Assembly (NCBI RefSeq): GCF_003334305.1
Contig: NZ_QOWS01000004.1
Length of the DNA: 64,000 bases
Source: Escherichia coli
Lineage (GTDB): Bacteria > Pseudomonadota > Gammaproteobacteria > Enterobacterales > Enterobacteriaceae
Strand: one strand, 5' to 3'
Part shown: positions 4,409 to 27,274 of the stretch, piece by piece
How positions within the stretch are numbered: the first letter of the stretch is position 1
Layout: every line of letters starts with the position of its first letter
Made by a program: the position numbers and the translations under genes
The notes under the pieces: generated by a model
The model's input: only the letters and a program-made list of their open reading frames with translations
Told to the model about the DNA's origin: nothing
Database searches by the model: none

Positions 4409-4419
4409 GAGATAGTCCT

Positions 4420-6515: not shown

Positions 6516-6612
6516 ACGCATCCTCTCGTAAAAAAGACCATCCCAGGTCGGTTGTCCATCTTTCCATCCTTTTCGGTGTATCAACTATTCAGAGAGTCCT
6601 GTCGCAGACATC

Positions 6613-12444: not shown

Positions 12445-14243
12445 TAGTAGACATCTCGCTGATAACGGCGCTCTACGCGCAGCTCACTTAAAAATTCATC
12501 CGCCGCTTCGGTGTCCATGCCACCAAATTCGGCAATCACTTCCAGAAGTGCCTGCTCAACGTCTTTCGCCATGCGATTAGCGTCACCGCAGACATAAATA
12601 TGGGCACCGTCATTGATCCAGCGCCACAGCTCCGCGCCCTGTTCGCGCAGTTTGTCTTGTACGTAAACTTTTTCTTTTTGGTCGCGCGACCAGGCGAGAT
12701 CGATCCGCGTCAGCACACCCTCTTTGACGTAGCGCTGCCACTCCACCTGGTAGAGGAAATCTTCCGTAAAGTGCGGGTTGCCAAAGAACAGCCAGTTTTT
12801 ACCCGGTGCTTCGTCGGCAGCACGTTGCTGCATAAAGGCGCGGAACGGCGCGATGCCGGTGCCTGGGCCAATCATAATCACCGGGGTTTCCGGGTTAGCG
12901 GGCAGGCGGAAGTTATCGTTATGTTCGATAAATACGCGGAGTTCGCCCTCTTCTTCCACGCGGTCCGCGAGGAAGCTGGAGGCACCACCGGCACGGGCGC
13001 GGCCTTCCACGTCGTAACGCACCACACCAACGGTGACGTGTACTTCGTTCTCGACTTCCGCCTGCGAGGAGGCGATGGAATACAGACGCGGCGTCAGCGG
13101 GCGCAGCAGATTAATTAGCGCTTCGGCATCAAGCTGTGCCGGGGAGAAACGCACCATGTCAACAATCGGCGTCGTCGCGGCGTAATGCTGTAACTTCGCT
13201 TTATCGCCCACCAGCGGCAGCAGTGTTTCACTGCGGGTAAGCGTGGCGTAATTCTCAACAATGTTGGCGGTGTTGACGGTCAGTTCGAAGTGCCACTGTA
13301 GCGCTTCGTTCAGAGGCAACGTTTTGCCCTCGACGGTGACAGGTTCATCGCCTGTCAGCCACAGCAGTTCGACAAGTTCTTTCACCAGTGCCGGATCGTT
13401 CTGATACCAGACGCCCAGCGCGTCACCCGGCTGGTAACGCAGGCCCGAGTCACCTAAGTCAATTTCGATATGGCGAACGTCTTTTTCAGAGTTACGCCCG
13501 GTAATTTTCTGGTTAACAGAGAGGCTAGCCACCAGTGGCGCGTCTTTGCTGTACGGGCTGGTGTGGATTTCATTTACCGCGCCAGTAGCGACGGATTGCG
13601 AAGGTGCCGCGACAGGCGCACGCGATTTAAGCGCATCAACCACGCGGGCGCGCCACTCGCTGGCAGCAGCCTGGTATTCAACATCGGCATCGACACGGTC
13701 GAGCAGGCGTTCACCGCCCAGTTCCGCCAGCTTGCTGTCGAAATCTTTCCCGGACTGGCAGAAAAATTCATAAGAGCTATCGCCGAGGCTAAACACGGCA
13801 AACGCGGTGTTTTCCAGCTTTGGCGCTTTTTTGGAGAACAGGAACTTATGCAGCGCGACGGCTTCTTCCGGCGGTTCCCCTTCCCCTTGCGTTGACGTCA
13901 CCACGATAAGCAGTTTTTCGCTGGCGATTTGTTTGAATTTATAGTCGCCCGCGTTCACCAGCTTAACGTTCAGTTTTGCCGTCAATAAATCATCGCGTAA
14001 TGCTTCAGCAACCCGGCGCGCATTGCCGGTTTGCGAAGCAGAGATAATAGTTATACCCGGCATTTCTGCGGCTGGCGCTGGCGTCGCTGCAAGCGCAGCA
14101 GGCTGCTGATTGAGCACGCCCCAGAAATAGCCAGAAACCCAGGCAAGCTGGGTGGGAGTTAAATCGGTCGTGGCCGCCTGAAGGCGTGCCAGTTGCTCCG
14201 GGTTCAACGGAAGCAACGCGGAAGGTGGGACCTGTGTCGTCAT
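12444..14243 (-). CDS. cysJ: Sulfite reductase flavoprotein alpha subunit
   Basis: 599-aa ORF with flavodoxin-like N-terminal and FAD/NADPH C-terminal domains; directly upstream of cysI. Confidence 0.95.
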
Positions 14244-14558
14244 GCGTCGTTATGTTCCAGTAAGCAAAGCTGTTTCTGCGCCCTGTCAGCGCCCATAAAA
14301 CAGAAGAGAAGGTAAGGTTAACGGGGCAAATGGTGTGGATTAAAGACGGGATAGCGATAACTAATAACCAAATCGACTAACCTGTTTTAGCAATAGTCTT
14401 TAACAACAAAATAGATTAACCAACCCAATGAAAAACAAATGAATTTAGCCAATCATTAAGATAAATCAGCGATTTTGCGCAACAAAGTCGTTTTAGATAA
14501 TGCGAAAAAACAGCCTTTCCGGTACTCTACGGCGGTTTTATCGTCCTGTAGAGAAATT
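14244..14558. promoter_or_regulatory. Divergent cysJIH / queD promoter region (CysB-dependent cysJ promoter expected here)
   Basis: 315-nt AT-rich intergenic region between divergent cysJ and queD; individual sites not resolved by eye. Confidence 0.5.
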
Positions 14559-14924
14559 ATGATGTCCACCACGTTATTTAAAGATTTCACCTTCGAAGCC
14601 GCTCACCGCTTACCACACGTCCCGGAAGGGCATAAATGTGGTCGCCTGCACGGGCATTCCTTTATGGTGCGACTGGAAATTACCGGGGAAGTCGATCCGC
14701 ATACGGGCTGGATTATCGATTTCGCTGAACTAAAAGCGGCGTTTAAACCAACCTACGAGCGCCTCGATCACCATTATCTCAATGATATTCCAGGTCTGGA
14801 AAACCCAACCAGCGAGGTTTTAGCAAAATGGATTTGGGATCAGGTTAAACCCGTTGTGCCGCTGTTAAGTGCGGTGATGGTAAAAGAAACCTGTACCGCA
14901 GGTTGTATCTATCGCGGCGAATGA
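14559..14924 (+). CDS. queD: 6-carboxy-5,6,7,8-tetrahydropterin synthase (queuosine biosynthesis)
   Basis: 121 aa from [35 protein letters not shown]... Confidence 0.93.
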
Positions 14925-15001
14925 TAAGAGTGTGTCGGCGGTCAATTTCCCTTAAGTAACGCTATGTTAGGGTGTTGTGTTCTGGATATCTGGGGCATGA
15001 C

Positions 15002-16273
15002 ATGGAAGACGACTGCGACATTATTATTATTGGTGCCGGTATTGCAGGCACCGCTTGCGCGTTACGCTGCGCACGAGCGGGTTTATCCGTTTTGTTACTG
15101 GAACGCGCTGAAATCCCCGGCAGCAAAAATCTTTCCGGCGGGCGGTTATATACCCATGCACTCGCGGAACTCCTCCCGCAATTTCATCTGACCGCGCCTC
15201 TTGAACGACGCATCACTCACGAAAGCCTTTCCCTGTTAACGCCCGATGGCGTAACGACGTTTTCCAGCTTACAGCCCGGCGGTGAATCCTGGAGTGTATT
15301 ACGTGCACGGTTCGATCCGTGGCTGGTTGCCGAAGCCGAAAAAGAAGGTGTCGAATGCATCCCCGGAGCGACGGTGGATGCACTGTATGAAGAAAACGGC
15401 AGGGTGTGTGGTGTCATTTGTGGTGACGATATTCTCCGCGCCCGTTATGTGGTGCTGGCAGAAGGTGCCAACAGCGTCCTGGCTGAACGTCACGGATTAG
15501 TGACTCGTCCTGCTGGCGAAGCGATGGCGTTGGGGATCAAAGAAGTGCTGTCGCTGGAAACATCCGCTATTGAAGAACGTTTTCATCTGGAGAATAACGA
15601 AGGCGCAGCGTTGCTGTTCAGCGGCAGGATCTGTGATGACTTACCCGGCGGCGCATTTCTTTATACTAATCAACAAACGCTCTCGTTAGGGATTGTTTGC
15701 CCGCTCTCTTCCCTTACGCAAAGTCGTGTTCCGGCAAGCGAGCTGCTGACTCGCTTTAAAGCGCATCCGGCAGTGCGCCCGCTTATCAAAAACACGGAAT
15801 CACTGGAGTATGGTGCGCATCTGGTGCCAGAAGGTGGCTTGCACAGTATGCCGGTGCAATACGCCGGTAACGGCTGGCTGCTGGTGGGCGATGCGTTGCG
15901 CAGTTGCGTCAATACCGGAATTTCCGTGCGCGGCATGGATATGGCGCTGACTGGCGCGCAGGCGGCGGCACAAACGCTGATAAGCGCCTGCCAGCACCGC
16001 GAGCCGCAAAATCTGTTTGCGCTTTATCATCACAACGTAGAGCGCAGCCTGCTATGGGATGTTCTACAACGTTATCAGCATGTTCCGGCGCTTTTGCAAC
16101 GCCCTGGCTGGTATCGGGCGTGGCCTGCGTTAATGCAGGATATTTCCCGCGATTTATGGGATCAGGGTGATAAACCTGTTCCACCGCTGCGCCAGTTATT
16201 CTGGCGTCATTTACGTCGTCATGGCCTGTGGCATCTGGCGGGCGATGTTATCAGGAGTCTGCGATGTCTGTAG
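15002..16273 (+). CDS. ygcN: FAD-dependent oxidoreductase, FixC / ETF-quinone oxidoreductase-like
   Basis: Start at MEDDCDIIIIGAGIAGTACAL (Rossmann GxGxxG at N-terminus), 423 aa; alternative start at 14972. Confidence 0.85.
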   Translation: MEDDCDIIIIGAGIAGTACALRCARAGLSVLLLERAEIPGSKNLSGGRLYTHALAELLPQFHLTAPLERRITHESLSLLTPDGVTTFSSLQPGGESWSVLRARFDPWLVAEAEKEGVECIPGATVDALYEENGRVCGVICGDDILRARYVVLAEGANSVLAERHGLVTRPAGEAMALGIKEVLSLETSAIEERFHLENNEGAALLFSGRICDDLPGGAFLYTNQQTLSLGIVCPLSSLTQSRVPASELLTRFKAHPAVRPLIKNTESLEYGAHLVPEGGLHSMPVQYAGNGWLLVGDALRSCVNTGISVRGMDMALTGAQAAAQTLISACQHREPQNLFALYHHNVERSLLWDVLQRYQHVPALLQRPGWYRAWPALMQDISRDLWDQGDKPVPPLRQLFWRHLRRHGLWHLAGDVIRSLRCL

Positions 16274-16524
16274 CCCATAATCTCTGGCGCGTTGCTGATG
16301 CGCCGCACATTGTTCCGGCTGACTCCGTTGAGCGTCAGATGGTACAACGGTTGATTAACGCCTGTCCGGCAGGTCTTTTTTCGCTCACACCGGAAGGTGA
16401 CTTACGCGTTGATTATCACGGCTGCCTGGAGTGTGGCACCTGCCGTTTGCTGTGCGACGAATCCACACTACAACAGTGGCGCTATCCGCCTTCCGGATTC
16501 GGCATCACCTACCGCTTTGGATAA
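16264..16524 (+). CDS. ygcO: Ferredoxin-like protein (FixX-like)
   Basis: 86 aa MSVAHNLWRV... with cysteine motif CLECGTCRLLC; overlaps ygcN stop. Confidence 0.85.
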   Translation: MSVAHNLWRVADAPHIVPADSVERQMVQRLINACPAGLFSLTPEGDLRVDYHGCLECGTCRLLCDESTLQQWRYPPSGFGITYRFG

Positions 16525-16540
16525 ATAATAAGGATAATTT

Positions 16541-17116
16541 ATGCCCCTCTTACACCTGCTCCGCCAGAATCCGGTGATTGCTGCCGTTAAAGATAATGCC
16601 AGCCTGCAACTGGCAATCGACTCTGAATGCCAGTTTATTTCCGTGTTGTACGGCAATATCTGCACCATCAGTAATATCGTTAAAAAGATTAAGAACGCCG
16701 GGAAATATGCTTTTATTCATGTTGATTTGCTGGAAGGCGCGTCAAATAAAGAAGTCGTGATTCAGTTTTTGAAACTGGTGACCGAGGCGGACGGCATTAT
16801 CAGTACCAAAGCCTCAATGTTGAAAGCGGCAAGAGCGGAAGGTTTTTTCTGTATTCATCGCCTGTTTATTGTTGATTCAATTTCGTTTCACAACATTGAT
16901 AAGCAAGTTGCGCAATCGAATCCGGATTGTATTGAGATCCTGCCAGGCTGTATGCCCAAAGTGCTGGGCTGGGTGACAGAGAAAATCCGCCAACCGCTGA
17001 TTGCCGGTGGGCTGGTGTGCGATGAAGAAGATGCGCGTAATGCGATTAACGCGGGTGTCGTGGCGCTTTCCACCACGAATACCGGGGTCTGGACGTTAGC
17101 GAAAAAATTACTTTGA
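16541..17116 (+). CDS. ygcP: GlpP-family (glycerol-3-phosphate-responsive antiterminator-like) regulator
   Basis: 191-aa ORF MPLLHLLRQNPVIAAVKDNASLQ...; family assignment recalled from K-12 annotation, not re-derived by alignment. Confidence 0.75.
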   Translation: MPLLHLLRQNPVIAAVKDNASLQLAIDSECQFISVLYGNICTISNIVKKIKNAGKYAFIHVDLLEGASNKEVVIQFLKLVTEADGIISTKASMLKAARAEGFFCIHRLFIVDSISFHNIDKQVAQSNPDCIEILPGCMPKVLGWVTEKIRQPLIAGGLVCDEEDARNAINAGVVALSTTNTGVWTLAKKLL

Positions 17117-17152
17117 CGGGATAATCGTAACCAATTGAATTTGGTTTGATTT

Positions 17153-17222
17153 GTAGGCCGCACGCCACATCCGACATTCAGCGCCTGATGCGACGCTTGA
17201 CGCGTCTTATCAGGCCTACAAG
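17153..17222. repeat. REP element pair between convergent ygcP and ygcQ
   Basis: GTAGGCCGCACGCC...GCCTGATGCGACGCTTGACGCGTCTTATCAGGCCTAC. Confidence 0.8.
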
Positions 17223-17263
17223 TCCCCAGGCCAGAACCGTAGGCAGGATCATCCGGCAACACG

Positions 17264-18124
17264 TTATTGGCAATCTGCGTGAATGTTTGTCACCAGTGCC
17301 TCCAGCACCACTTTCCAGTCATCAACCACGCCAACATCTGCCTGTGAAAATACCGCAGCGCTGGCGTCATGATTAATCGCCACCACAAACTTGCTATTGC
17401 GTACGCCCGCCATTAACGCTGCTGCGCCAGAAGCGCCAACAACAATACACACCTCAGGTGCCAGCAGATGTCCGGAAATACCAATCACTTTTTCAGCATC
17501 AACGCCACCGTTCATCACTCGCGCCCGACTGTAGCCCACTTCGGCTCCCAGCTTTTCTGCCAGCATAGCGATTTCCTGGTTATCTGCCTCTCCGCCCTGC
17601 CCCACCACCAGCACCCGTCTGGCCTCAGCTAATGGGTCGCGAGTAACATTTTTCAGATCCTCTGTGCTAACCAGCCAGTCGGGAAGCGCACCCGGGACAA
17701 TGTTCAGTTGTTGCATTCCAGAGGGCAACGTGGCGTTTTTCGCTGCTCCCGCCTGACGCGCCAGGGAAAGGCATAGCGGGCGTTTTTCTGTTTGCAGCGT
17801 CGCCGTTAGCGCATTTCCCCAGTGGGATTTGCGCACGCTTACGGTTGGAATATCTAACGAAGTCACCTGGCAGATGCTTGCACCATGTAAACGCCAGGCC
17901 AGCCGGGTCGACAGTTCATCGCCAAACGTTCCCGGCGGAAAGAGAACAACGTCCGCAGGCGTTCGCTGCCACTGTTCCACCAACGCATCCAGCACCTGTT
18001 CCGCCACTACAGGCTGAGGTTCAATCTGCCAGTGCGCCAGGGTACAACCGCTGAAATCCTGCGCCGCCAGCCAGCTTGCTATTGCGGCATTCTCCTGATT
18101 TATTGTCACAATTGCGATATTCAT
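17264..18124 (-). CDS. ygcQ: Electron transfer flavoprotein alpha subunit-like (FixB-like)
   Basis: 286 aa from MNIAIVTINQ...; start overlaps ygcR stop (ATGA). Confidence 0.85.
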   Translation of the reverse strand: MNIAIVTINQENAAIASWLAAQDFSGCTLAHWQIEPQPVVAEQVLDALVEQWQRTPADVVLFPPGTFGDELSTRLAWRLHGASICQVTSLDIPTVSVRKSHWGNALTATLQTEKRPLCLSLARQAGAAKNATLPSGMQQLNIVPGALPDWLVSTEDLKNVTRDPLAEARRVLVVGQGGEADNQEIAMLAEKLGAEVGYSRARVMNGGVDAEKVIGISGHLLAPEVCIVVGASGAAALMAGVRNSKFVVAINHDASAAVFSQADVGVVDDWKVVLEALVTNIHADCQ

Positions 18125-18900
18125 GGCTGCATCCTTTGGCGTAAATAGTCCTGCCATAGCTTTTGAGCTTTTTCTGCTACCGTTTGCCCATCAATCAGCG
18201 TCGCTCCGCGTCGTTGCTCTGCTCTTGCCAGTTGCAGACACTGCATCGCTGGCATTTCGGCAGCAACAGTTTTACGGATAATTTCTGCTTTCCCCGCAGC
18301 CATTCGCTGGCGCATTCCCGGTACTGGCAAGGCCACTTCACCGCACTGACGCACGGCAATCACCGCAGGCAAGCGAACCCGGCAACAACGCAAACCATGT
18401 TCAGTACGCTGTTCGAGGGTGATAAACAGCGCGTCGAGAGTGAAACGCTCCACCTGGGTGAAGCAGGGCCAGCCCAGCATTTCCGCCAGCAAAAATGGCG
18501 TTTGCCCATTCTGCCCTTCGCTGCTTTGGCAGCCGGTAATTATCAGATCCAGCGGATTCTGATGCTGCCATTCGGCAATATGGCGAGCGACAAATTCCGG
18601 CGCAAAGCGCAGATCTGCCGCCGTCTCCAGCAATACAGCTTCCTCAAACCCAAGAGCCATGAGATAGCGCAGCCAGTGCAATGCCCGTTCATCCCCCATG
18701 CTCAACGCGGTTAAAGACATCGGCGTACCGTTTTTTCTCTGCGCCAACAGCAGCGCGGCAGCGGCCTGTTCATCAGCACCGAGTAAACTTCGCAGTAGCG
18801 AAATATCCGGTCCGCTTTTACCCTGAGCCGCCGCCTGCCACTCTTTTTCCGCCAGCATTCCGGCATCCGGTTCGGCTTTAAACGCTAACAGAATGTTCAT
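18121..18900 (-). CDS. ygcR: Electron transfer flavoprotein beta subunit-like (FixA-like)
   Basis: 259 aa from MNILLAFKAEPDAGML...; the ORF offers ATG two codons upstream as well. Confidence 0.85.
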   Translation of the reverse strand: MNILLAFKAEPDAGMLAEKEWQAAAQGKSGPDISLLRSLLGADEQAAAALLLAQRKNGTPMSLTALSMGDERALHWLRYLMALGFEEAVLLETAADLRFAPEFVARHIAEWQHQNPLDLIITGCQSSEGQNGQTPFLLAEMLGWPCFTQVERFTLDALFITLEQRTEHGLRCCRVRLPAVIAVRQCGEVALPVPGMRQRMAAGKAEIIRKTVAAEMPAMQCLQLARAEQRRGATLIDGQTVAEKAQKLWQDYLRQRMQP

Positions 18901-20215
18901 TCGCACCTCCTACATTTCCCGCCGCCACCAGCGGGAGGGCTTTAGTTTCTGGTGCCCATAGCCAGGTCACAACAAAACCAACCAACAACACTGTCGCCAG
19001 GAGCAATAAGGTGACTTGCATTCCCCACTGCGCCAGCACCCACGGCAGCAGGCCAGTACTTACCGCCGCGCCAAGTCGACTCATGGCGGTGGCAAAACCG
19101 ACGCCCAGCGAGCGAATGTCAGTAGGAAAACTTTCCGCAGGCAAAATGCCCACCAGATTACTGACTGCCGAAATGGTGGTGCTGAAGAGAACAAAAAGCA
19201 GCAGCGTTAATGAACTGCCGGAAGGCAAACAGGCCATGACTACCAGCGTTGCCGCCAGCAGCAAAAAACTTCCCAGCAAAAATTTGCGATGTGCCAGCAG
19301 GTGCGTCAGAACTAATCCCAGCAGCGCGCCCACAATTAACAACGCATTAAGCATCAGGCTGGCAGTCAGCGCATCTTCCAGACCAATAGTCTGGGCGATA
19401 GTTGGCAGCCAGGTATAAATCACAAACCATGGGATTACGAGGCAGACAAAGAAGACGCTGTTAAACGCCGTTCGCCGCCAGTAACGCGAAGAGAACAAGG
19501 TTTTGATGTGTTTATGGGTCGCCGTTACCACTTCATCGCCCAGTAAAACATGGGGACCAAAATAGCGATGCACGATAGCGTGAGCTTCTGCAAAACGCCC
19601 CTGGCGCAGTAGCCAGCGTGGTGATTCTGGCGTTCCCCAGCGTAATAACGTAATCAACAACGCGGGCAGAGCTGCCGATGCCAGTAGCCAGCGCCAGGCC
19701 TCCGGGTTTTCGGAAATAAAGTGATGTCCGGCAATACTTGCCAGCACATAGCCTACGGTCCACACCACGCTGAATGCGCCCAGCAAAATACCGCGATGGC
19801 GGCGCGGGGAAAATTCAGCCAGCAAGGTGTGACCTACTGAATAATCGCCTCCCAGACCAATGCCAATCAAAATGCGCAGTCCAATAAGATGCTCTGGCGT
19901 GGTGGCAAAAAATTGTAAAAACGAAGCAAGCGTAATCAGCAAAAAGCTGAAGGTGAAGATTTTTTGCCGACCAATATGGTCGGAGATCCACCCAAGAACC
20001 AGGCTGCCAAGGAACAAACCAAGGAGCGCCGAGCCGCCGATCATTCCCGCCATAAACGGCGTCAGTTGCATGGCGGGCGTAAGCTGAATAATGGCGTAAC
20101 CAATGACGCCGAGAACATAACCGTCGGTCAGGTGTGCGCCGAAAGTGAGCGCAGCAATGCGGCAGTGAAAACGGTTAAGCGGTAAATCATCCATTCGCAC
20201 CGGTGAAGTGTTCAT
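18878..20215 (-). CDS. ygcS: MFS transporter
   Basis: 445 aa from MNTSPVRMDD...; multiple hydrophobic spans; start choice by length, the ORF extends to 20287. Confidence 0.8.
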   Translation of the reverse strand: MNTSPVRMDDLPLNRFHCRIAALTFGAHLTDGYVLGVIGYAIIQLTPAMQLTPFMAGMIGGSALLGLFLGSLVLGWISDHIGRQKIFTFSFLLITLASFLQFFATTPEHLIGLRILIGIGLGGDYSVGHTLLAEFSPRRHRGILLGAFSVVWTVGYVLASIAGHHFISENPEAWRWLLASAALPALLITLLRWGTPESPRWLLRQGRFAEAHAIVHRYFGPHVLLGDEVVTATHKHIKTLFSSRYWRRTAFNSVFFVCLVIPWFVIYTWLPTIAQTIGLEDALTASLMLNALLIVGALLGLVLTHLLAHRKFLLGSFLLLAATLVVMACLPSGSSLTLLLFVLFSTTISAVSNLVGILPAESFPTDIRSLGVGFATAMSRLGAAVSTGLLPWVLAQWGMQVTLLLLATVLLVGFVVTWLWAPETKALPLVAAGNVGGANEHSVSV

Positions 20216-20308
20216 CTTTACCCCTTCATTGTCCGGTAATAAGAACGGCTTCTCGCCTGAGAAGCCGAAAAGGCAACGCCCCGTCATCGCGGAACGCTGC
20301 CTGACACA

Positions 20309-21763
20309 TTATTTTTCAATCGGATAGATAGTACCCGTATTCATAATGCCATTAGGATCGAACTGCTTTTTCAGCCCTTCCAGCAACGCCCACGCGCTGC
20401 CGTGTTCCAGTTTGCTCCAGTGAACGCGATGTTTACCGATACCGTGGTGGTGCACCATCGAACCGCCGAGGCGAATGGTTTCTTCACAGATGATCTTGTT
20501 GAGCGGATTGTGGTACTTGTCGATTTCCTCTTCCGGCTTACAGTCAACGACGTTGTAATCGTAGACGAAGTACATGTTGGTGCCGTTCTGATAGCTATGA
20601 GAGGAATGACCGCCCAGCATGGTGATGTCGTCGGCGTGCGGGAACTCAGTACGAATACGGTTAATAACGCTTTCGTAGATTTCGTGGATGCAGCTCCAGC
20701 AGCCGGACACTTCAGTGGTAAAGCCCATGTTGCCGGTTTTGAGGATCTGCACACGTTCGGCAGCCACTTTATCCGGTCCCCAGTTCAGGTTGTTAAACCA
20801 GGTTTCGATCAGCTTGCTGTCCACGCGCTGGCATTGCGGGTAGCGGGCAACGATTTCCGCAATCCCTTCGCCCGTCGCCTTCGCAATGCGAGGGTTACCT
20901 TCAGCCATAAAGATCAGCACGCATTTTCCGTCTGCAAAATGGGTGAAGTGTTGGGTGCCATCTTCAGCGTCATACAAACGAGCGATCGACGGACGATACC
21001 CTTCCACCATGACTTCACGCAGGATGTTGAAGCCGGTTTTCATGTCTTCCAGGATATAGCCGTAGAAGAGGTTGTTTTCCGGGGTGAATTTAAAGATTTT
21101 CACTGTTACTTCAGTGATATAGCAAAGTGCACCTTCGTTACCGATGATGATGTGGCGAATGTCCGGGCCAGCCGCGCGGCGTGGCACGTTTTTAATGCGT
21201 GTGACGGTGCCATCAGCCAATACTGCTTCCAGACCAACGACCATATCTTCGATTGCGCCGTAGAGTGTGGAGAACTGCCCGATACTGCGGGTTGCTACCA
21301 GGCCGCCCATCTGAGCCAGCGGCTTTGACTGCGGAGAATGCCCCGTGGTGTAACCTTTTTCACGCAACGCATTTTCCAGCACCTCCAGCGGAACGCCACA
21401 TTGCGCCGTCGCCTGCATATTCTCAATATCAATATTAATGATTTGATTCATGGCGGAGCCGTCGAGCACCACCGAGTTTTCCACAACGGTTTCCAGCCCA
21501 CCTTCAGTGGCGGAAGCGCCGGTACGCGGCACACCGTTAATTTTGTGCGCATTCATAAAATTCAGCACACGGGAGACTTGTTCTGTGGAACCGAGTTTTA
21601 CGACCGCTGCCGGAATCGGCAAAGTATAAATACCATGAATATCCGGAAATTTACGAAAACGGTCAATACTGTTCTTCTTTAATACTGTTTCATCGGTAAT
21701 TACGCGATCTGCACCAACAATTTCCTTTAGCTGGTCGACAATCGCTGCGCGAGATAAAGACAT
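20309..21763 (-). CDS. ygcU: FAD-linked oxidase (alkyl-DHAP synthase / D-lactate dehydrogenase-like)
   Basis: 484-aa ORF with FAD-binding PCMH-type region. Confidence 0.85.
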   Translation of the reverse strand: MSLSRAAIVDQLKEIVGADRVITDETVLKKNSIDRFRKFPDIHGIYTLPIPAAVVKLGSTEQVSRVLNFMNAHKINGVPRTGASATEGGLETVVENSVVLDGSAMNQIINIDIENMQATAQCGVPLEVLENALREKGYTTGHSPQSKPLAQMGGLVATRSIGQFSTLYGAIEDMVVGLEAVLADGTVTRIKNVPRRAAGPDIRHIIIGNEGALCYITEVTVKIFKFTPENNLFYGYILEDMKTGFNILREVMVEGYRPSIARLYDAEDGTQHFTHFADGKCVLIFMAEGNPRIAKATGEGIAEIVARYPQCQRVDSKLIETWFNNLNWGPDKVAAERVQILKTGNMGFTTEVSGCWSCIHEIYESVINRIRTEFPHADDITMLGGHSSHSYQNGTNMYFVYDYNVVDCKPEEEIDKYHNPLNKIICEETIRLGGSMVHHHGIGKHRVHWSKLEHGSAWALLEGLKKQFDPNGIMNTGTIYPIEK

Positions 21764-21832
21764 AGTAATTCCTTCCTGATAATAAAAATGGAATAATCAT
21801 TAATAAGAGAAAACAGAAACCACCGTTATGGA

Positions 21833-22618
21833 TTAGCGCACTAAATAACCACCATCGACCACTAATAAATGCCCATTGACATAATTTGAAGCCGGACTTG
21901 CGAGGAATACAGCTGCGCCCATTAAATCCTGAGTATCGCCCCAACGGTTTGCCGGAATATGATCAAGAACGCGCTGATTGGTTTCTGGATTACTGCGTGT
22001 CGCCAGCGTAATATCTGTTGCATAATAGCCAGGGGCGATACCATTTACCTGAATATTATATTGACCTAGCTCATCACAATAAGCTTTGGTGAACCCGGCA
22101 AGAGCATGTTTAGTGGCAGAATATGCAGGTGACCATTGTCCACCTAAGTAAGAGAACAATGAACAGATATTAATAATTTTGCCGCTTTTCTGCGGGATCA
22201 TAATTTTTGCAGCTTCATAGCTTAACTCGAATGCGGCGGTCAGGTTCACATCAATCATCGGATCCCAGTCGGCACGACCGAAGTCCAGCACCTTATTCAG
22301 CTTACAAATACCGGCATTGTTTACCAGAATATCAACTGTACCGAAACGCTCACAGCAAGCAGCGATAATCTTCTGCGGCGCGCCTTCTGCGGTGATATCC
22401 ACCTGCATGAAGTCCACCTCAACACCCTGTTTTTCAATCATTTCCTTTGTTTCGCCGTTATCTTTGACGAAACTAGGAATAAAGATATTTGCGCCAGCTT
22501 TGGCCAACGCCATGGCAAATGCCTGGCCTAAACCGCTATTCCCACCGGTAACAATTGCGGTTTTACCTTTCAGTGAGAAAAAATCCATTGAGAACGCATT
22601 GAGAGATTCGATTGACAT
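21833..22618 (-). CDS. ygcW: Short-chain dehydrogenase/reductase (KduD / gluconate-5-dehydrogenase-like)
   Basis: 261 aa from MSIESLNAFSMDFFSLKGKTAIVTGGNSGLGQAF (TGxxxGxG), later NNAG and YxxxK elements. Confidence 0.88.
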   Translation of the reverse strand: MSIESLNAFSMDFFSLKGKTAIVTGGNSGLGQAFAMALAKAGANIFIPSFVKDNGETKEMIEKQGVEVDFMQVDITAEGAPQKIIAACCERFGTVDILVNNAGICKLNKVLDFGRADWDPMIDVNLTAAFELSYEAAKIMIPQKSGKIINICSLFSYLGGQWSPAYSATKHALAGFTKAYCDELGQYNIQVNGIAPGYYATDITLATRSNPETNQRVLDHIPANRWGDTQDLMGAAVFLASPASNYVNGHLLVVDGGYLVR

Positions 22619-22642
22619 AGTTAGCTCCAATTTCCGTAAGGC

Positions 22643-22690
22643 AAAAAAAAAGAAAGGTAACTTCCCCCGCGAGAGGGAAGTTACCTTTCT
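22643..22690 (-). terminator. Intrinsic-terminator-type hairpin in the ygcW 5' leader (candidate attenuator)
   Basis: Minus-strand RNA: AGAAAGGUAACUUCCC-UCUCGCGG-GGGAAGUUACCUUUCU followed by U8; perfect 16-bp stem; U-tract ends 24 nt before the ygcW ATG. Confidence 0.65.
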
Positions 22691-22742
22691 CATTATCTCT
22701 GGTAACTGGAGATAATTTTTAGCATAACGGCATAACTGCTAA

Positions 22743-22758
22743 TGTGATCGTAATCACA
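22743..22758. promoter_or_regulatory. CRP-binding site (perfect TGTGA-N6-TCACA)
   Basis: TGTGATCGTAATCACA in the ygcW/yqcE divergent intergenic region; overlapping TGTGA repeats follow at 22760 and about 22792-22808. Confidence 0.65.
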
Positions 22759-22864
22759 GTGTGATATTCGTATTGTCAAATAGTTTTAAAAAGCAGAAGC
22801 GTGATTACTCTCACACAACACCTCTGCTTTCCATGTTATTTCTTATTGCAATTACTAGAGACCT

Positions 22865-22912
22865 GAGAAAAGTAATCCACCTGAAAGGGCGGCTTACTTT
22901 TCTCTTTTTTTT
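22865..22912 (+). terminator. Intrinsic-terminator-type hairpin in the yqcE 5' leader (candidate attenuator)
   Basis: GAGAAAAGTAA-18 nt loop-TTACTTTTCTC followed by T8; T-tract ends 24 nt before the yqcE ATG; 5' arm resembles that of the ygcW leader hairpin. Confidence 0.6.
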
Positions 22913-22936
22913 GTCTATTACAAATGGGAATACGAT

Positions 22937-24214
22937 ATGCAACACAACTCATATCGCCGTTGGATAACCCTCGCGATAATTAGTTTTAGCGGCGGCGTTA
23001 GTTTCGACCTGGCTTATTTACGTTATATTTATCAAATTCCCATGGCGAAATTTATGGGATTCAGCAATACCGAGATAGGTTTAATAATGAGTACCTTTGG
23101 TATTGCGGCTATTATTCTTTATGCCCCCAGCGGCGTTATTGCCGATAAATTTTCACACCGCAAAATGATTACTTCCGCGATGATCATTACCGGATTACTG
23201 GGTCTGTTAATGGCAACGTATCCACCGCTGTGGGTAATGCTCTGTATTCAGGTCGCCTTTGCGATAACGACGATTTTAATGCTGTGGTCGGTGTCGATTA
23301 AAGCCGCCTCGTTGCTGGGCGATCATAGTGAGCAAGGGAAAATTATGGGCTGGATGGAAGGGCTGCGCGGCGTCGGTGTAATGTCGCTGGCGGTGTTTAC
23401 CATGTGGGTCTTTTCTCGCTTTGCACCGGATGACAGCGCCAGCCTGAAAACAGTCATTATCATCTACAGTGTGGTTTACATCTTGTTGGGGATTCTGTGC
23501 TGGTTTTTTGTTAGCGATAACAACAACCTGCGCAGTGCCAATAACGAAGAAAAACAGTCATTCCAGCTTAGCGACATCCTTGCCGTTTTGCGTATCAGCA
23601 CCACCTGGTATTGCAGCATGGTGATTTTTGGTGTCTTCACAATCTACGCCATTCTGAGTTACTCCACCAACTATCTGACCGAAATGTACGGCATGTCGCT
23701 GGTGGCAGCGAGCTACATGGGGATTGTGATCAACAAAATCTTCCGCGCGCTGTGCGGCCCACTTGGCGGCATTATCACCACCTACAGTAAAGTGAAATCC
23801 CCTACCCGCGTGATCCAAATCCTTTCCGTACTCGGCCTGCTGGCGTTAACTGCCCTGCTCGTCACGAACTCTAACCCGCAATCGGTCGCGATGGGGATTG
23901 GCCTGATTTTACTGCTGGGATTCACCTGTTACGCCTCACGCGGGCTGTACTGGGCCTGCCCTGGCGAAGCGAGAACACCGTCTTACATTATGGGCACCAC
24001 GGTAGGTATTTGTTCGGTGATTGGATTCCTGCCGGATGTCTTCGTTTACCCGATTATCGGCCACTGGCAAGACACCCTGCCCGCAGCAGAAGCCTACCGC
24101 AATATGTGGCTGATGGGAATGGCGGCGCTTGCCATGGTGATTGTCTTTACCTTTTTGCTGTTCCAAAAAATTCGTACTGCTGATAGCGCCCCCGCAATGG
24201 CTAGCAGCAAGTAA
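22937..24214 (+). CDS. yqcE: MFS transporter
   Basis: 425-aa ORF, multi-pass hydrophobic. Confidence 0.88.
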   Translation: MQHNSYRRWITLAIISFSGGVSFDLAYLRYIYQIPMAKFMGFSNTEIGLIMSTFGIAAIILYAPSGVIADKFSHRKMITSAMIITGLLGLLMATYPPLWVMLCIQVAFAITTILMLWSVSIKAASLLGDHSEQGKIMGWMEGLRGVGVMSLAVFTMWVFSRFAPDDSASLKTVIIIYSVVYILLGILCWFFVSDNNNLRSANNEEKQSFQLSDILAVLRISTTWYCSMVIFGVFTIYAILSYSTNYLTEMYGMSLVAASYMGIVINKIFRALCGPLGGIITTYSKVKSPTRVIQILSVLGLLALTALLVTNSNPQSVAMGIGLILLLGFTCYASRGLYWACPGEARTPSYIMGTTVGICSVIGFLPDVFVYPIIGHWQDTLPAAEAYRNMWLMGMAALAMVIVFTFLLFQKIRTADSAPAMASSK

Positions 24215-24240
24215 GCCAGGAAAATTACAGGAGAAAAATC

Positions 24241-25719
24241 ATGTCGAAAAAATACATCATAGGGATTGATGGCGGAAGTCAGAGCACAAAAGTGGTGATG
24301 TACGATCTGGAAGGTAACGTGGTTTGCGAAGGCAAAGGCTTATTACAGCCGATGCACACGCCAGATGCCGATACTGCAGAACATCCTGACGACGATTTAT
24401 GGGCATCATTATGTTTTGCAGGTCACGATTTGATGAGCCAGTTTGCCGGGAATAAAGAAGATATTGTTGGCATCGGCCTGGGCTCCATCCGTTGCTGCCG
24501 TGCGTTATTGAAAGCCGACGGCACGCCAGCTGCGCCGTTGATTAGCTGGCAGGATGCACGCGTTACACGCCCTTACGAACATACGAATCCTGACGTGGCG
24601 TATGTCACCTCTTTTTCGGGTTATCTGACGCATCGCTTAACCGGCGAGTTTAAAGACAATATCGCCAACTATTTTGGTCAGTGGCCGGTGGATTATAAGA
24701 GCTGGGCATGGAGCGAAGATGCTGCGGTAATGGATAAGTTTAATATCCCCCGTCATATGCTGTTTGATGTGCAAATGCCTGGCACCGTCCTCGGACATAT
24801 CACACCACAAGCCGCACTGGCGACACATTTCCCGGCAGGACTGCCGGTTGTTTGTACCACCAGTGATAAACCGGTAGAAGCTCTGGGGGCCGGATTACTG
24901 GATGATGAAACTGCGGTAATTTCTCTTGGCACTTACATCGCATTGATGATGAACGGCAAAGCACTGCCGAAAGATCCGGTGGCGTACTGGCCGATTATGT
25001 CTTCTATTCCGCAAACATTGCTGTATGAAGGTTACGGTATTCGCAAAGGTATGTGGACGGTGAGCTGGCTGCGTGACATGTTAGGCGAGTCGTTAATTCA
25101 GGATGCCAGGGCGCAGGATCTTTCACCGGAAGATTTACTCAACAAGAAAGCCTCTAGTGTGCCACCTGGCTGTCATGGGCTGATGACGGTGCTGGACTGG
25201 CTGACCAATCCGTGGGAACCGTACAAACGCGGGATTATGATCGGCTTTGATTCCAGCATGGATTACGCATGGATATATCGTTCGATATTGGAAAGTGTGG
25301 CGCTAACGCTGAAGAACAATTACGACAATATGTGTAATGAAATGAATCACTTTGCGAAGCATGTGATCATTACTGGCGGCGGTTCGAACAGCGATCTGTT
25401 TATGCAAATTTTTGCCGACGTGTTCAACCTTCCGGCACGCCGTAACGCCATTAACGGTTGTGCAAGTCTGGGAGCAGCGATTAATACAGCGGTAGGTCTG
25501 GGGCTATACCCGGATTACGCAACGGCTGTTGATAAGATGGTTCGCGTGAAAGATATCTTTATACCGATTGAGAGCAATGCCAAACGCTACGACGCGATGA
25601 ATAAAGGCATTTTCAAAGACCTAACCAAACATACTGATGTGATCCTGAAAAAATCGTATGAAGTGATGCATGGGGAATTGGGGAATGTGGATTCGATCCA
25701 GAGCTGGTCGAATGCGTAA
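24241..25719 (+). CDS. ygcE: FGGY-family carbohydrate kinase
   Basis: 492-aa ORF MSKKYIIGIDGGSQSTKVVMYDLEGN... (sugar-kinase N-terminal motif), ...ITGGGSNSDLFMQIFADV. Confidence 0.88.
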   Translation: MSKKYIIGIDGGSQSTKVVMYDLEGNVVCEGKGLLQPMHTPDADTAEHPDDDLWASLCFAGHDLMSQFAGNKEDIVGIGLGSIRCCRALLKADGTPAAPLISWQDARVTRPYEHTNPDVAYVTSFSGYLTHRLTGEFKDNIANYFGQWPVDYKSWAWSEDAAVMDKFNIPRHMLFDVQMPGTVLGHITPQAALATHFPAGLPVVCTTSDKPVEALGAGLLDDETAVISLGTYIALMMNGKALPKDPVAYWPIMSSIPQTLLYEGYGIRKGMWTVSWLRDMLGESLIQDARAQDLSPEDLLNKKASSVPPGCHGLMTVLDWLTNPWEPYKRGIMIGFDSSMDYAWIYRSILESVALTLKNNYDNMCNEMNHFAKHVIITGGGSNSDLFMQIFADVFNLPARRNAINGCASLGAAINTAVGLGLYPDYATAVDKMVRVKDIFIPIESNAKRYDAMNKGIFKDLTKHTDVILKKSYEVMHGELGNVDSIQSWSNA

Positions 25720-25727
25720 GTGAGGAA

Positions 25728-25751
25728 GGCCGGGCGGGAAACTGCCCGGCC
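25728..25751 (+). terminator. GC-rich hairpin directly after the ygcE stop (possible terminator, no T-tract)
   Basis: GGCCGGGC-GGGAAACT-GCCCGGCC. Confidence 0.35.
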
Positions 25752-25765
25752 TGAACATACCTGAA

Positions 25766-25903
25766 TGGTTATCCCCGCTGACGCGGGGAACATAAGTTCG
25801 ACAACTTAAAAAATGATAACAAGTCCGGTTTATCCCCGCTGATGCAGGGAACATAATAAAAACTTTAACTAGTTCGGTTTATCCCTGTTTTTACAAGGAA
25901 TAT
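25766..25903 (-). CRISPR. Degenerate CRISPR remnant (three decayed I-E repeats)
   Basis: TGGTTATCCCCGCTGACGCGGGGAACAT, CGGTTTATCCCCGCTGATGCAGGGAACAT, CGGTTTATCCCTGTTTTTACAAGGAATAT; first interval 32 nt, second 20 nt. Confidence 0.8.
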
Positions 25904-26357
25904 TAACTACACTCGATGTCTTTAGAATAAAAGACAATACGAATCGCACTTTATCAATTTTCACTTAAAGTATGAACTGGATATCTTTATTCATAAGAAC
26001 TATTCATCAACAGCGTATAGAGGCGGTTATGTAAAACCACTCATTAGCCTCAAAACAAAGACAAACTTCCAGATTTATTACTTAACCAATGAATAACAAG
26101 CTTAAAAAATATACTGTTATTCTAAAGAAAAAATTAACAGGCATTAATTCAATATTAAAAAAATAATAGATTAAAATTTCTTAACGATTTAAGAATCATA
26201 CAAATAACACTTTGATTAAATTTAATTTTTTGTATCGATAATTGTGAACCTCTCTGGCATGGAGAACTATTTTGAACATGAGGTGTTACGTGGATATGTT
26301 GCTTATTACAAGTACTGCTAATATAAAAACTTGAGAAAGAGATAACGGGTTATATGG

Positions 26358-26935
26358 TGGTTTATCCCCGCTGGCGCGGGGAGCTCAACATCGGAAACGG
26401 CTTCGCGGCGGCGGCGTCCGGTTTATCCCCGCTGGCGCGGGGAGCTCTACGTGAAGAATATTTGCAACACCCGCAAGAACGGTTTATCCCCGCTGGCGCG
26501 GGGAGCTCGGCATAGCCAGGCTGATCCGGCGACGGCCTTACGGTTTATCCCCGCTGGCGCGGGGAACACTGTTCGGCGGGGCGGTAGTACCACTGTTTTT
26601 TCGGTTTATCCCCGCTGGCGCGGGGAACACATCAACATGCAGCGCGAACGGCTGCCCCTCGCCGGTTTATCCCCGCTGGCGCGGGGAACACTCTTATTCA
26701 GTCCCCTTTTCCATCTGCTGTGGCGGTTTATCCCCGCTGGCGCGGGGAACACGTAAATTGCGACGTCCTGCGCCAGTAATTCAACGGTTTATCCCCGCTG
26801 GCGCGGGGAACACGATGCGGCAGCGGCGGCGGGAAGTTATCGCGGCGGTTTATCCCCGCTGGCGCGGGGAACACCTTTCAATATAGTCAGAAAAGTCTTT
26901 TGGCAACGGTTTATCCCCGCTGGCGCGGGGAACAC
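26358..26935 (-). CRISPR. Type I-E CRISPR array 2: 10 repeats, 9 spacers of 32 nt
   Basis: Repeats at 26358,26419,26480,26541,26602,26663,26724,26785,26846,26907; the three leader-distal repeats end GAGCTC rather than GAACAC; leader at the 3' side on plus, so minus-strand transcription. Confidence 0.97.
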
Positions 26936-27130
26936 TCTAAACATAACCTATTATTAATTAATGATTTTTTAAGCCAGTCACAATCTACCAACTTTATAGT
27001 ATCACACAAACAACACATCCATTATGTTAAAGAGCACTTAATCCATTGATTAAAAAGGTAAATATTTAAAATAACTCTATACAAACTAAAATCTACCAAA
27101 CTTTACCGCAATAATTTTCACTCCAGCGAA
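26936..27130 (-). promoter_or_regulatory. Leader of CRISPR array 2
   Basis: AT-rich; shares CTAA-CATA and ACAATCTACCAACT motifs with the array-1 leader; a second AAATCTACCAAACT copy near 27090. Confidence 0.75.
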
Positions 27131-27274
27131 AAATTAATGCCACAGAATTTGTAGAGAATGCTAATGATTAGCCCTGGATGGGTAAAATGGAGGAGTTTTC
27201 AGAGGCGACAAACAATATAAATGAGTAGAAGTCTTTACAGGTTCCACCCATTTATAACGCTTATAAATGTTTAA

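Follow-up and report, generated by a model that had tools for sequence, protein, structure and literature searches.

The ygc genes and their conserved core

The window analysed here is a stretch of 64,000 nucleotides of Escherichia coli DNA (contig NZ_QOWS01000004.1), and our subject is the set of ten genes that lies in it between the queuosine genes queD and queE, namely ygcN, ygcO, ygcP, ygcQ, ygcR, ygcS, ygcU, ygcW, yqcE and ygcE (the ygc cluster). Genes were called by an open reading frame (ORF) scan together with the RefSeq annotation of E. coli strain A7, which is 100% identical over positions 14000-27000. The features of the locus are as follows.

14562-14924, + strand: queD (ORF scan and RefSeq annotation)
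15002-16273, + strand: ygcN, FixC/YdiS-like FAD oxidoreductase resembling electron transfer flavoprotein (ETF):quinone oxidoreductase (RefSeq annotation)
16264-16524, + strand: ygcO, FixX-like ferredoxin, overlapping ygcN by 10 nt
16541-17116, + strand: ygcP, GlpP-family RNA-binding antiterminator (Pfam G3P_antiterm)
about 17150-17220, no strand assigned: repetitive extragenic palindromic (REP) element in the gap between the convergent ygcP and ygcQ
17264-18124, - strand: ygcQ, ETF alpha-like subunit (weak NCBIfam ETF-alpha matches)
18121-18900, - strand: ygcR, ETF beta-like subunit (weak NCBIfam ETF-beta matches)
18878-20287, - strand: ygcS, major facilitator superfamily (MFS) transporter, sugar-porter-, aromatic-acid- or organic-cation-like
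20309-21763, - strand: ygcU, AGPS-family FAD enzyme, hallmark of the cluster (FAD_binding_4 and FAD-oxidase_C domains)
21833-22618, - strand: ygcW, short-chain dehydrogenase/reductase (SDR) like KduD and gluconate-5-dehydrogenase
22643-22713, - strand: ygcW leader attenuator (terminator scan, fold energy, covariance model match and covariation)
22743-22758, no strand assigned: CRP site TGTGATCGTAATCACA (read from the sequence, and literature)
22800-22815, no strand assigned: second, CRP-like site cGTGATTACTCTCACA (read from the sequence)
22844-22912, + strand: yqcE leader attenuator (covariance model match and fold energy)
22937-24214, + strand: yqcE, MFS_1 transporter
24241-25719, + strand: ygcE, FGGY-family kinase
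25765-25900, + strand: degenerate clustered regularly interspaced short palindromic repeats (CRISPR) directly after ygcE, in the flank and outside the system (repeat-family search)
26358-26935, + strand: complete type I-E CRISPR array, in the flank and outside the system (RefSeq CRISPR feature, 61-nt periodicity)
27275-27946, - strand: queE (ORF scan and RefSeq annotation)

The ten genes, all with intact ORFs, form three units between queD and queE: ygcNOP (15002-17116, + strand), ygcWUSRQ (22618-17264, - strand) and yqcE-ygcE (22937-25719, + strand). Neighbouring genes of a unit are separated by gaps of -23 to +69 nt, as would suit three transcription units. An earlier sequence-only reading of this DNA had proposed the same ten genes, units and flanks, and the ORF scan and the RefSeq annotation bore it out; its family calls agreed, for all ten genes, with our NCBIfam, Pfam and PDB comparisons. 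The start that it gave for the cluster, 14972, turned out to be an upstream GTG, the annotated start of ygcN being 15002. None of the ten proteins reached a curated NCBIfam cutoff, and hence none of them inherits a specific name.

To compare the locus across bacteria, we scored the E. coli proteins against six-frame ORFs of 83 fetched loci, 80 from a one-genome-per-species collection and three from assemblies. YgcU was present in all 83, YgcW in 79, YgcE in 71 and YgcP in 58 of these loci, which belong to four phyla, many of the missing core genes falling on short contigs. The unit of YgcW, YgcU and YgcE, with or without YgcP, was found in Enterobacterales, Desulfobacterales, Bacillota and Actinomycetes. 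The core of the cluster is therefore a set of four genes, coding for the SDR, the AGPS-like flavoenzyme, the FGGY kinase and the antiterminator, while the ETF pair is accessory. The order YgcU-YgcR-YgcQ was kept in about 60 loci; the lineages without ETF genes (Halobacillus, Virgibacillus, Thalassobacillus, Saccharopolyspora, Prauserella, Pantoea/Erwinia, some Serratia and SAR324) are aerobic or plant-associated, and the loci with them come mostly from anaerobes or facultative anaerobes. YgcN, YgcO and YgcS were seen in Enterobacterales loci only, and YqcE-like MFS genes in 45 loci, including those of Photobacterium and two Bacillota. The sequence-only reading was thus right in seeing a coherent, co-conserved catabolic set of transport, kinase, dehydrogenases, ETF module and GlpP-like regulator, and wrong in taking ETF linkage for its defining trait, since ETF genes are missing in about a quarter of the loci and YgcNO is confined to Enterobacterales. 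The kinase and the transporters also occur without ETF genes; what is invariant is YgcW-YgcU-YgcE, usually joined by YgcP.

The proteins differ greatly in how well they are conserved. Across phyla, identity to the E. coli proteins was 66-93% for YgcU and 66-97% for YgcW, and in a homologue search YgcU orthologues from very distant bacteria were 64-100% identical, whereas the ETF subunits were 27-45% identical outside the closest genera (YgcR 29-45%). YgcE occurs in two subtypes, the E. coli protein being 54-57% identical to those of Bacillota versus 43-49% to those of Serratia, Erwinia, Photobacterium, Desulfopila and actinomycetes. In the comparison with loci L029-L045, Citrobacter and Cedecea share the Bacillota subtype with E. 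coli, and Serratia, Rahnella and Erwinia carry the other one; such a divergent kinase, despite 78-86% identity of YgcU and YgcW in these three genera, suggests replacement of the kinase or horizontal exchange within the cluster. Two loci with high YgcU identity look like enterobacterial contamination or mis-binned contigs, one from a metagenome-assembled genome (MAG) named 'Planctomycetota bacterium' (L006, 100%) and one from 'Chryseobacterium sp. 18061' (L024, 89%), the latter with the full enterobacterial gene order including queD.

When YgcU was compared with the PDB, the best match was alkyl-dihydroxyacetone-phosphate synthase (AGPS), the eukaryotic ether-lipid enzyme, with E values of 4e-40 for the single sequence and 9e-56 for a profile, ahead of glycolate oxidase, the ETF-dependent lactate dehydrogenase LctD, D-lactate dehydrogenase (D-LDH) and D-2-hydroxyglutarate dehydrogenase (D2HGDH). 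In the HMMER alignment, the catalytic residues Arg419, Tyr578 and His615-617 of AGPS correspond to R262 (ARLYD), Y398 (NMYFVY) and H438-440 (HHHGIGK) of YgcU, the Arg and Tyr positions being readable directly from the entries of the AGPS Y578F and R419H mutants. All of these residues were invariant in 11 YgcU orthologues, and in 40 homologues down to 28% identity R262, Y398, H439 and H440 remained invariant and H438 was at least 90% conserved. The AlphaFold (AF2) model of YgcU (mean pLDDT 94.3, pTM 0.91) gave the same result in Foldseek, where the best 29 matches were all AGPS (TM 0.78-0.87); with mammalian AGPS, at 25% identity, the TM score was 0.86-0.87, as compared with 0.80-0.82 for D-LDH, a small margin. 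YgcU has 484 residues and AGPS 658, the alignment starts at about AGPS residue 179, the N-terminal ~170 residues are missing, and the AGPS trait of an N-terminal domain and a hydrophobic tunnel for a fatty alcohol or acyl chain is not seen, and for this reason we call YgcU AGPS-like and not an ether-lipid synthase. Alignment and model, together with the PCMH/VAO-type FAD domain and cap domain, place YgcU with the AGPS-family flavoenzymes rather than with generic oxidases. Its setting is unlike that of AGPS: the operon around it, apparently catabolic and inducible, also codes for a kinase, an SDR, an ETF and solute transporters, and no lipid-metabolism genes lie nearby.

Other systems also place a vanillyl-alcohol-oxidase (VAO)-type FAD dehydrogenase beside an ETF pair, with an ETF:quinone oxidoreductase-like protein as the onward acceptor, as in LctBCD and D2HGDH-ETF-ETF:quinone oxidoreductase. 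YgcU differs from these dehydrogenases in having an HHH instead of an EHG motif and in being closer to AGPS, and the true LctD-like enzyme is a separate gene in anaerobe loci. This second, LctD/D2HGDH-type FAD dehydrogenase was seen in L002, L004, L047-L063, L074, L080 and L082; it is encoded after YgcRQ, is 20% identical to YgcU, carries the EHG motif and has its own ferredoxin-domain ETF. The latter is a second ETF pair, present in several of the anaerobe loci, whose alpha subunit has an N-terminal ferredoxin domain of the electron-bifurcating type. Both extras are missing from E. coli. Among more distant relatives of YgcU, one with 58% identity (L086) is flanked by an OpuAC-type ATP-binding cassette (ABC) system, an SDR, an FGGY kinase and a formaldehyde-activating enzyme (Fae), and one with 46% identity lies beside a CUT2 sugar ABC system, an iron-containing alcohol dehydrogenase and an FGGY kinase; the wider family hence applies the same logic of alcohol dehydrogenase, kinase and AGPS-like enzyme to different solutes.

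The remaining proteins could be assigned to families at lower resolution. YgcN scored 382 bits with PRK10015 (cutoff 466) and 365 bits with FixC (cutoff 610), YgcO 84 bits with FixX (cutoff 166), and YgcR and YgcQ 43-76 bits with the ETF models, again below cutoff; judged by these scores, the four are probably divergent paralogues of the Fix/ETF families. They resemble E. coli FixABCX (cai-fix) and YdiQRST in being a set of ETF-alpha/beta and FixC/FixX-like proteins, but all four lie below the Fix/Ydi cutoffs and their partner is AGPS-like and not an acyl-CoA dehydrogenase. YgcW reached 350.6 bits with PRK06935 (cutoff 369) and 276 bits with TIGR01832 (cutoff 339), scores that describe it as KduD-like rather than as KduD (2-dehydro-3-deoxy-D-gluconate 5-dehydrogenase). 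YgcE was below cutoff for all the named FGGY kinases compared (XylB, LsrK, GlpK, GntK, AraB, FucK and RhaB; 143/380 bits for XylB and 141/528 for LsrK), and its nearest PDB relatives were LsrK and glycerol kinases. For YgcS, the models TIGR00895, TIGR00879 and TIGR00898 ('cation transport protein') gave 182, 143 and 139 bits, all below cutoff, and YqcE showed a weak NCBIfam match to the D-galactonate-transporter subfamily. YgcP, in contrast to these weak matches, aligned with the whole of Pfam G3P_antiterm (PF04309; E 1.6e-62, residues 12-184, model 1-173/173) and with the Listeria GlpP-like structure 3kts (1.2e-27), and the best 120 matches of its homologue search were all YgcP orthologues.

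Leader RNAs and CRP sites

The two divergent units, ygcWUSRQ and yqcE-ygcE, are each preceded by a leader attenuator and a CRP site. These elements, absent from the sequence-only reading, are the regulatory heart of the locus. In the ygcW leader, a 19-bp terminator hairpin followed by U9 (22691-22650, - strand) is overlapped by an AGUUAC/GUAACU antiterminator helix; the yqcE leader is a second copy, with an AAUUAC/GUAAU helix and an imperfect 17-bp terminator followed by U8. Both terminators end about 25 nt ahead of the ATG start codon of the gene, and the fold energies were -37.1 kcal/mol (z -7.9) for ygcW and -22.3 kcal/mol (z -4.0) for yqcE. From the alignment, the consensus of the element (~70 nt) is cAGUUACUAGAG-N3-6-GAGAGAAAAGUAACUUCC-loop-GGAAG-N-GCUUUUCUCUC-U6-9. 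An extra local hairpin, AUUAUCUC...GAGAUAAU, seen in the E. coli ygcW leader (22690-22716, - strand), may enclose AGUUAC and rival the antiterminator helix; it is apparently not conserved beyond close relatives.

A loose regular expression found 93 copies of the element in the window and the loci, and a covariance model was built from 45 diverse leader copies. On the 64-kb window the model gave exactly two full-length matches, of 72 bits (E 3e-13) at ygcW and 70 bits (E 9e-13) at yqcE, the other matches being antisense shadows of the palindromic stems. It gave 79 full-length matches and one partial antisense match in enterobacterial loci, with two copies in nearly every locus, and 35 full-length matches and one partial match in the other loci, the element recurring upstream of YgcW in other phyla. 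When positions 14300-27400 were searched with Rfam at E<=1, only a weak REP/naRNA4 match and a chance nadA match were returned, and the leaders were unmatched. The leader is thus a previously undescribed conserved RNA element with no Rfam family.

The alignment supports both helices. The terminator stem (columns 24-31/63-70) was 99.2% paired and showed, at two of its pairs, changes from A-U to C-G and G-C, and the antiterminator helix (columns 7-12/31-36) was 94.8% paired, with compensatory changes in five of its six pairs (21 cells). None of 500 shuffles reached the covariation observed for the antiterminator, and sliding the register lowered the pairing to 18-51%. As the two helices share columns 31-36, covariation supports the presence of two mutually exclusive helices in the leader. 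The 6-bp antiterminator helix is worth only about -1 kcal/mol alone, as expected for an antiterminator that is stabilised by a protein. The leader follows YgcP: outside Enterobacterales it was found in 20 of 21 loci with YgcP versus 2 of 19 without, and those two are short contigs. Both YgcP and the leader are absent from the Desulfobacterales, SAR324 and Alkalihalobacillus loci, Desulfopila having a LysR gene instead.

This arrangement recalls the Bacillus subtilis glpPFKD system, in which a GlpP-family regulator overrides an intrinsic terminator in the 5' leader, and which likewise combines the regulator with a transporter, an FGGY kinase and an FAD-dependent dehydrogenase. Part for part, GlpP would correspond to YgcP, the carrier to YqcE/YgcS (BCCT or OpuC elsewhere), GlpK to YgcE and GlpD to YgcU with YgcRQ, YgcW being without a counterpart. 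The 5' untranslated region of B. subtilis glpD is a known GlpP target (PMC9604022, Table S4), and by eye it has the same layout (GGUC-CUGAGAUGAG-GAGAGACC...), with a GAGA-rich loop closed by a short helix that overlaps with the terminator's 5' arm. The two systems differ in that the ygc kinase is distant from GlpK, the ygc flavoenzyme is of the AGPS/VAO type with its own ETF and is not GlpD, and the ygc cluster has an extra SDR, other transporters and a different leader consensus without an Rfam match. The ligand of YgcP is presumably not glycerol-3-phosphate itself.

The site TGTGATCGTAATCACA (22743-22758) has perfect consensus CRP half-sites and lies about 41 bp upstream of the start of the ygcW leader; cGTGATTACTCTCACA (22800-22815) is near-consensus and CRP-like, and lies about 41 bp upstream of the start of the yqcE leader. 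This spacing suggests two class II CRP promoters. The first site is a CRP chromatin immunoprecipitation (ChIP) peak in enterotoxigenic E. coli (ETEC) H10407 (PMC4287617), ygcW and yqcE are among the best cross-species CRP predictions of PhyloScan (PMC1794230), and yqcE-ygcE is listed as Crp-activated (PMC8085971).

Substrate class and candidate pathway

The genes that accompany the core outside Enterobacterales point to the class of substrate. BCCT genes were present in 13 of these loci, OpuA/OpuC-type betaine/choline ABC transporters with OsmF/OpuAC/ProX-like binding proteins in about nine, and homologues of the non-pyrrolysine (non-Pyl) MttB methyltransferase family in nine (up to 397 bits to TIGR02369, cutoff 525). 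At least one BCCT, OpuA/OpuC-type or MttB gene was found in 26 of 41 non-enterobacterial loci, and by a rough estimate chance adjacency to such genes would be of the order of 1%. The leader lies directly ahead of BCCT genes in Sporomusa and in three Clostridia MAGs (L002, L056, L059 and L063), each of the MAGs having two divergent BCCT genes behind leaders, and also directly ahead of an OpuC-type ABC operon (L072) and an MttB-led operon (L071), indicating that these genes are co-regulated with the core and are more than neighbours. Since the same core and the same leader RNA serve betaine-type transporters and MttB in other phyla, the substrate is probably a glycerol-like compound with a quaternary ammonium group (betaine- or choline-like) rather than a plain sugar. 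That E. coli shares its chemistry with the Bacillota that have BCCT or OpuC genes is argued for by its kinase subtype and by the near-invariance of YgcU and YgcW. YgcS was chosen in another study as a homologue of NiaP (~26% identity), and its overexpression raised the production of nicotinamide mononucleotide from nicotinamide (PMC8601175), a result that a cationic or zwitterionic substrate would fit but that by no means proves one. Glycerophosphocholine, carnitine, 2,3-dihydroxypropane-1-sulfonate (DHPS) and hydroxyproline betaine were weighed as substrates, and none of them accounts for all parts.

Several further genes were seen in the loci. The MttB-led operon behind the leader (L067, L069 and L071, from Syntrophomonadaceae/Bacillota MAGs) also codes for a PanB-family hydroxymethyltransferase (330 bits, above the subfamily cutoff), an OpuC-type ABC transporter and a protein like proline racemase or hydroxyproline epimerase. 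Together with Fae, the PanB-family genes suggest that a C1 unit at the oxidation level of formaldehyde is handled, and none of the models considered here accounts for this. Most of the ETF-free Erwiniaceae, Serratia and SAR324 loci and the ETF-containing Desulfopila locus L047 (L033, L039 and L042-L047) share a well-conserved aldo-keto reductase (~500 bits to each other) that is kin to L-glyceraldehyde-3-phosphate reductase and methylglyoxal reductase, to which the enterobacterial loci among them add an aldehyde dehydrogenase and a LysR regulator, a hint that the pathway may give off a reactive aldehyde or 2-oxoaldehyde as a by-product. Opp/Gsi-type ABC genes beside the Pantoea/Erwinia loci were considered as a clue to the substrate and set aside, as their ATPase is essentially GsiA (1050 bits, cutoff 1077) and they are probably mere neighbours. 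Annotation of the flanking ORFs of the Saccharopolyspora and Halobacillus loci was uninformative.

We favour the reading, with a probability of about 0.55, that the cluster is a catabolic regulon of the glp kind, induced by its substrate, which would be a small hydroxylated molecule with a glycerol-like end and probably a quaternary-ammonium derivative. Transcription would start from two divergent cAMP-CRP-dependent promoters, with CRP exerting catabolite control, and without inducer it would stop at the leader terminator ~25 nt before ygcW and before yqcE. YgcP together with a phosphorylated intermediate, an analogue of glycerol-3-phosphate, would bind the purine-rich loop closed by the AGUUAC/GUAACU helix, and this binding would sequester the 5' arm of the terminator and let RNA polymerase read through both leaders. 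A substrate of the type X-CH2-CHOH-CH2OH would enter via YqcE and/or YgcS. KduD and gluconate-5-dehydrogenase oxidise a penultimate CHOH beside a terminal CH2OH, and FGGY kinases phosphorylate the terminal CH2OH of polyols and ketoses; by analogy, YgcW may oxidise the penultimate CHOH and YgcE phosphorylate the terminal CH2OH, giving an X-substituted dihydroxyacetone phosphate (DHAP) or glycerol-phosphate. YgcU would then carry out either a GlpD-like dehydrogenation or an AGPS-type reaction that displaces X at C1 with release of DHAP. Electrons are suggested to pass from the YgcU flavin to YgcRQ and, in Enterobacterales, via the FixCX-like YgcNO to the quinone pool; the occurrence of the ETF in anaerobes and facultative anaerobes, and not in aerobes, fits a need for oxidised flavin that is otherwise met by O2 or a housekeeping acceptor. 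The ery pathway of Brucella and Rhizobium also uses an FGGY kinase and then an FAD-dependent dehydrogenase, which converts the polyol phosphate to a keto-phosphate; unlike the ygc cluster, it has a GlpD-like EryB, no ETF, repressor control and no link to betaine transporters.

Several observations weigh against this regulon. The E. coli locus has MFS transporters and no BCCT or OpuC genes, so that the quaternary amine is carried over from other phyla, and the family assignment of YgcS is ambiguous, its aromatic-acid, sugar-porter and organic-cation scores being comparable. AGPS is redox-neutral, which makes a net dehydrogenase role of YgcU an assumption, and the conserved DHAP-binding residues fit GlpD-like dehydrogenation and AGPS-like substitution equally well. 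ETF genes are absent from about 17 loci, showing that YgcU has no strict need of a dedicated ETF. As for control, the Desulfobacterales keep the core without YgcP or the leader, so the regulation is not universal; the covariation controls leave part of the effect of shared ancestry in place; and MAFFT did not reproduce the register by which the glpD leader was matched by eye, which leaves a resemblance only.

The sequence-only reading had proposed uptake, phosphorylation and ETF-coupled oxidation of a polyol or sugar-acid-like substrate. A plain erythritol/threitol-like polyol or keto-deoxy-sugar-acid without an ammonium group, for which the MFS transporters would define the substrate and the betaine transporters elsewhere would be unrelated, is in our judgement doubtful. 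It would suit YgcW, which nearly reaches the KduD cutoff (351 versus 369 bits), the weak likeness of YqcE to galactonate-type carriers, and the 46% relative of YgcU with its CUT2 sugar ABC system, iron-containing alcohol dehydrogenase and FGGY kinase, and the two kinase subtypes would allow the substrate to differ by lineage. The AGPS-like YgcU and the betaine-type transporters and MttB homologues elsewhere speak against such a substrate: the same leader fronts BCCT, OpuC-type ABC and MttB genes, the E. coli YgcE belongs to the subtype of the BCCT- and OpuC-linked Bacillota (54-57% versus 43-49%), and the conservation of YgcU and YgcW (66-97%) is too high for substrates that differ.

A more specific version of the YgcU step, which we regard as unlikely, is ether cleavage. 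YgcW and YgcE would make a 1-O-substituted DHAP from a glyceryl ether or C1-substituted glycerol, e.g. glyceryl-N,N,N-trimethylhomoserine, the deacylated head group of diacylglyceryl-N,N,N-trimethylhomoserine (DGTS), and YgcU, running AGPS chemistry in reverse, in the hydrolytic direction, would release DHAP and homoserine betaine, while the ETF would merely keep the flavin oxidised without O2. MttB enzymes would demethylate this betaine alcohol in anaerobes, and aerobes would turn it into fumarate and trimethylamine. The catalytic residues and the fold of AGPS are kept in YgcU, a KduD-type SDR and an FGGY kinase are the enzymes needed to make a DHAP moiety from a glycerol end, anaerobes and facultative anaerobes have the ETF and aerobes do not, and betaine transporters and MttB homologues lie in the same regulon. 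In Alkalihalobacillus, an aspartase-like lyase, an aldehyde dehydrogenase and a zinc-dependent alcohol dehydrogenase lie directly upstream of BCCT-SDR-FGGY-YgcU and in the same orientation, a trio that would take homoserine betaine via aspartate betaine to fumarate and trimethylamine, and a second aspartase-like lyase was found in Desulfopila. We also found no bacterial route for betaine-lipid head groups in the literature. Against it, the scheme is entirely inferential and the lyase and dehydrogenase trio occurs in only one or two loci, E. coli has little obvious exposure to DGTS, YgcU is without the N-terminal domain of AGPS, and the PanB-like and Fae genes of some loci are left unexplained.

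Electron flow in the opposite direction is less probable still. E. coli FixABCX is linked to carnitine, a quaternary amine, and is thought to serve crotonobetaine reduction, and by this analogy NADH or quinol would reduce YgcNO, then YgcRQ and YgcU, for anaerobic reduction of the substrate. YgcN and YgcO are indeed closest to FixC and FixX, and the ETF-containing loci are mostly those of anaerobes or facultative anaerobes. However, the presence of a kinase, activation by CRP and a regulator of the GlpP type are typical marks of carbon catabolism, aerobes retain the core without the ETF, and the solved relatives of YgcU all oxidise or substitute and none reduces.

Distribution, surroundings and significance

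The cluster is not an E. coli-specific island. The sequence-only reading had described it as inserted between queD and queE, whereas its GC content, 0.43-0.57 along the cluster, is host-like and without a sharp border, and no integrase, tRNA or mobility genes were found at its borders in the RefSeq annotation. All 5426 complete E. coli genomes matched the window region to some extent; 5045 of them (93%) carry the cluster (at least 80% of the region, at 95-100% identity), and most of it is missing in the other 381 (~7%). The same arrangement of queD, cluster and queE was found in Escherichia, Klebsiella, Citrobacter, Enterobacter, Superficieibacter, Pluralibacter, Mixta, Yokenella, Cedecea and others. 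In both low-coverage genomes among those listed, a 3' fragment of ygcE stands between queD and the CRISPR array, and the array is followed by queE in the one inspected in detail (E. coli MMC-J-0020, L085, positions 3163-6834, equivalent to 14562-27946 of the window). Given this ygcE remnant, absence of the cluster is a secondary deletion that runs from just after queD into ygcE, and the site is not an empty one. That the genes are silent, decaying relics without a current function in E. coli is very improbable: they have no known phenotype, are deleted in ~7% of complete genomes and are interrupted by IS3/IS1397 insertion sequences in some other E. coli strains, but the ten ORFs are intact, 93% of 5426 genomes carry the cluster at 95-100% identity, conservation of the proteins and of both leader RNAs extends over genera and phyla, and CRP binds the region in vivo (ETEC ChIP, PMC4287617).

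The cluster had also been described as bracketed by REPs and a CRISPR remnant. The CRISPR part proved to be more than a remnant, the downstream element being a full array of 10 repeats and 9 spacers with 61-nt spacing; its first three repeats end ...GGGGAGCTC and the remaining seven ...GGGGAACAC, and two to three degenerate repeats lie 40-180 nt past the ygcE stop codon (~25765-25900). Tandem Repeats Finder missed the array because its spacers differ, and the repeat-family search recovered it. Border REPs did not hold up, as an inverted-repeat scan found none there; the sole REP found is the internal one in the ygcP/ygcQ gap, with a weak match to the REP-derived Rfam family naRNA4 (17143-17216) and an exact REP consensus (17183-17197). 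Five cluster proteins gave no defence-system match in PADLOC, indicating that the cluster does not belong to the CRISPR-Cas system next to it and that the neighbouring array is coincidental. Elsewhere in the window, cas3 (up to ~9312) and a hok/gef gene (9507-9659) lie upstream of cysH.

The pathway had been called uncharacterised, and this agrees with the full-text literature as late as March 2026: searches by gene names, family combinations, GlpP and betaine-lipid catabolism found no published pathway for the ygc cluster, and a paper of that month mentions YgcU merely as 'an additional FAD-binding oxidoreductase'. Already known are the gene annotations, listed as of unknown function; new are the cross-phylum core, the AGPS-type active site and, above all, the conserved leader attenuator associated with YgcP, together with the wider regulon of betaine-type transporters that it fronts.

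Ten contiguous E. coli genes that are present in 93% of strains without an assigned function have thus become a defined and testable problem, with a core that is conserved at 66-97% from E. coli to clostridia, halophilic bacilli, sulfate reducers and actinomycetes. A bacterial AGPS-type flavoenzyme with its own ETF has been identified, and the 70-nt leader RNA can be used directly as a reporter in screening for the inducer. GlpP-type antitermination, hitherto studied in Bacillus, would thereby extend to Proteobacteria and Actinomycetes with a distinct RNA consensus. Ether cleavage, if true, would explain the AGPS homologue, the kinase and SDR that precede it, the betaine transporters and MttB, and the lyases of Alkalihalobacillus and Desulfopila, and would be a new bacterial route for breaking the stable glyceryl-ether bond of betaine-lipid head groups, in a regulon switched by a new GlpP-class leader RNA that senses a phosphorylated intermediate. 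More generally, the link to betaine transporters and MttB suggests an unrecognised route of quaternary-amine turnover, related to choline, carnitine or betaine lipids, and such turnover is relevant to trimethylamine production in the gut and to the cycling of osmolytes in marine and hypersaline environments.

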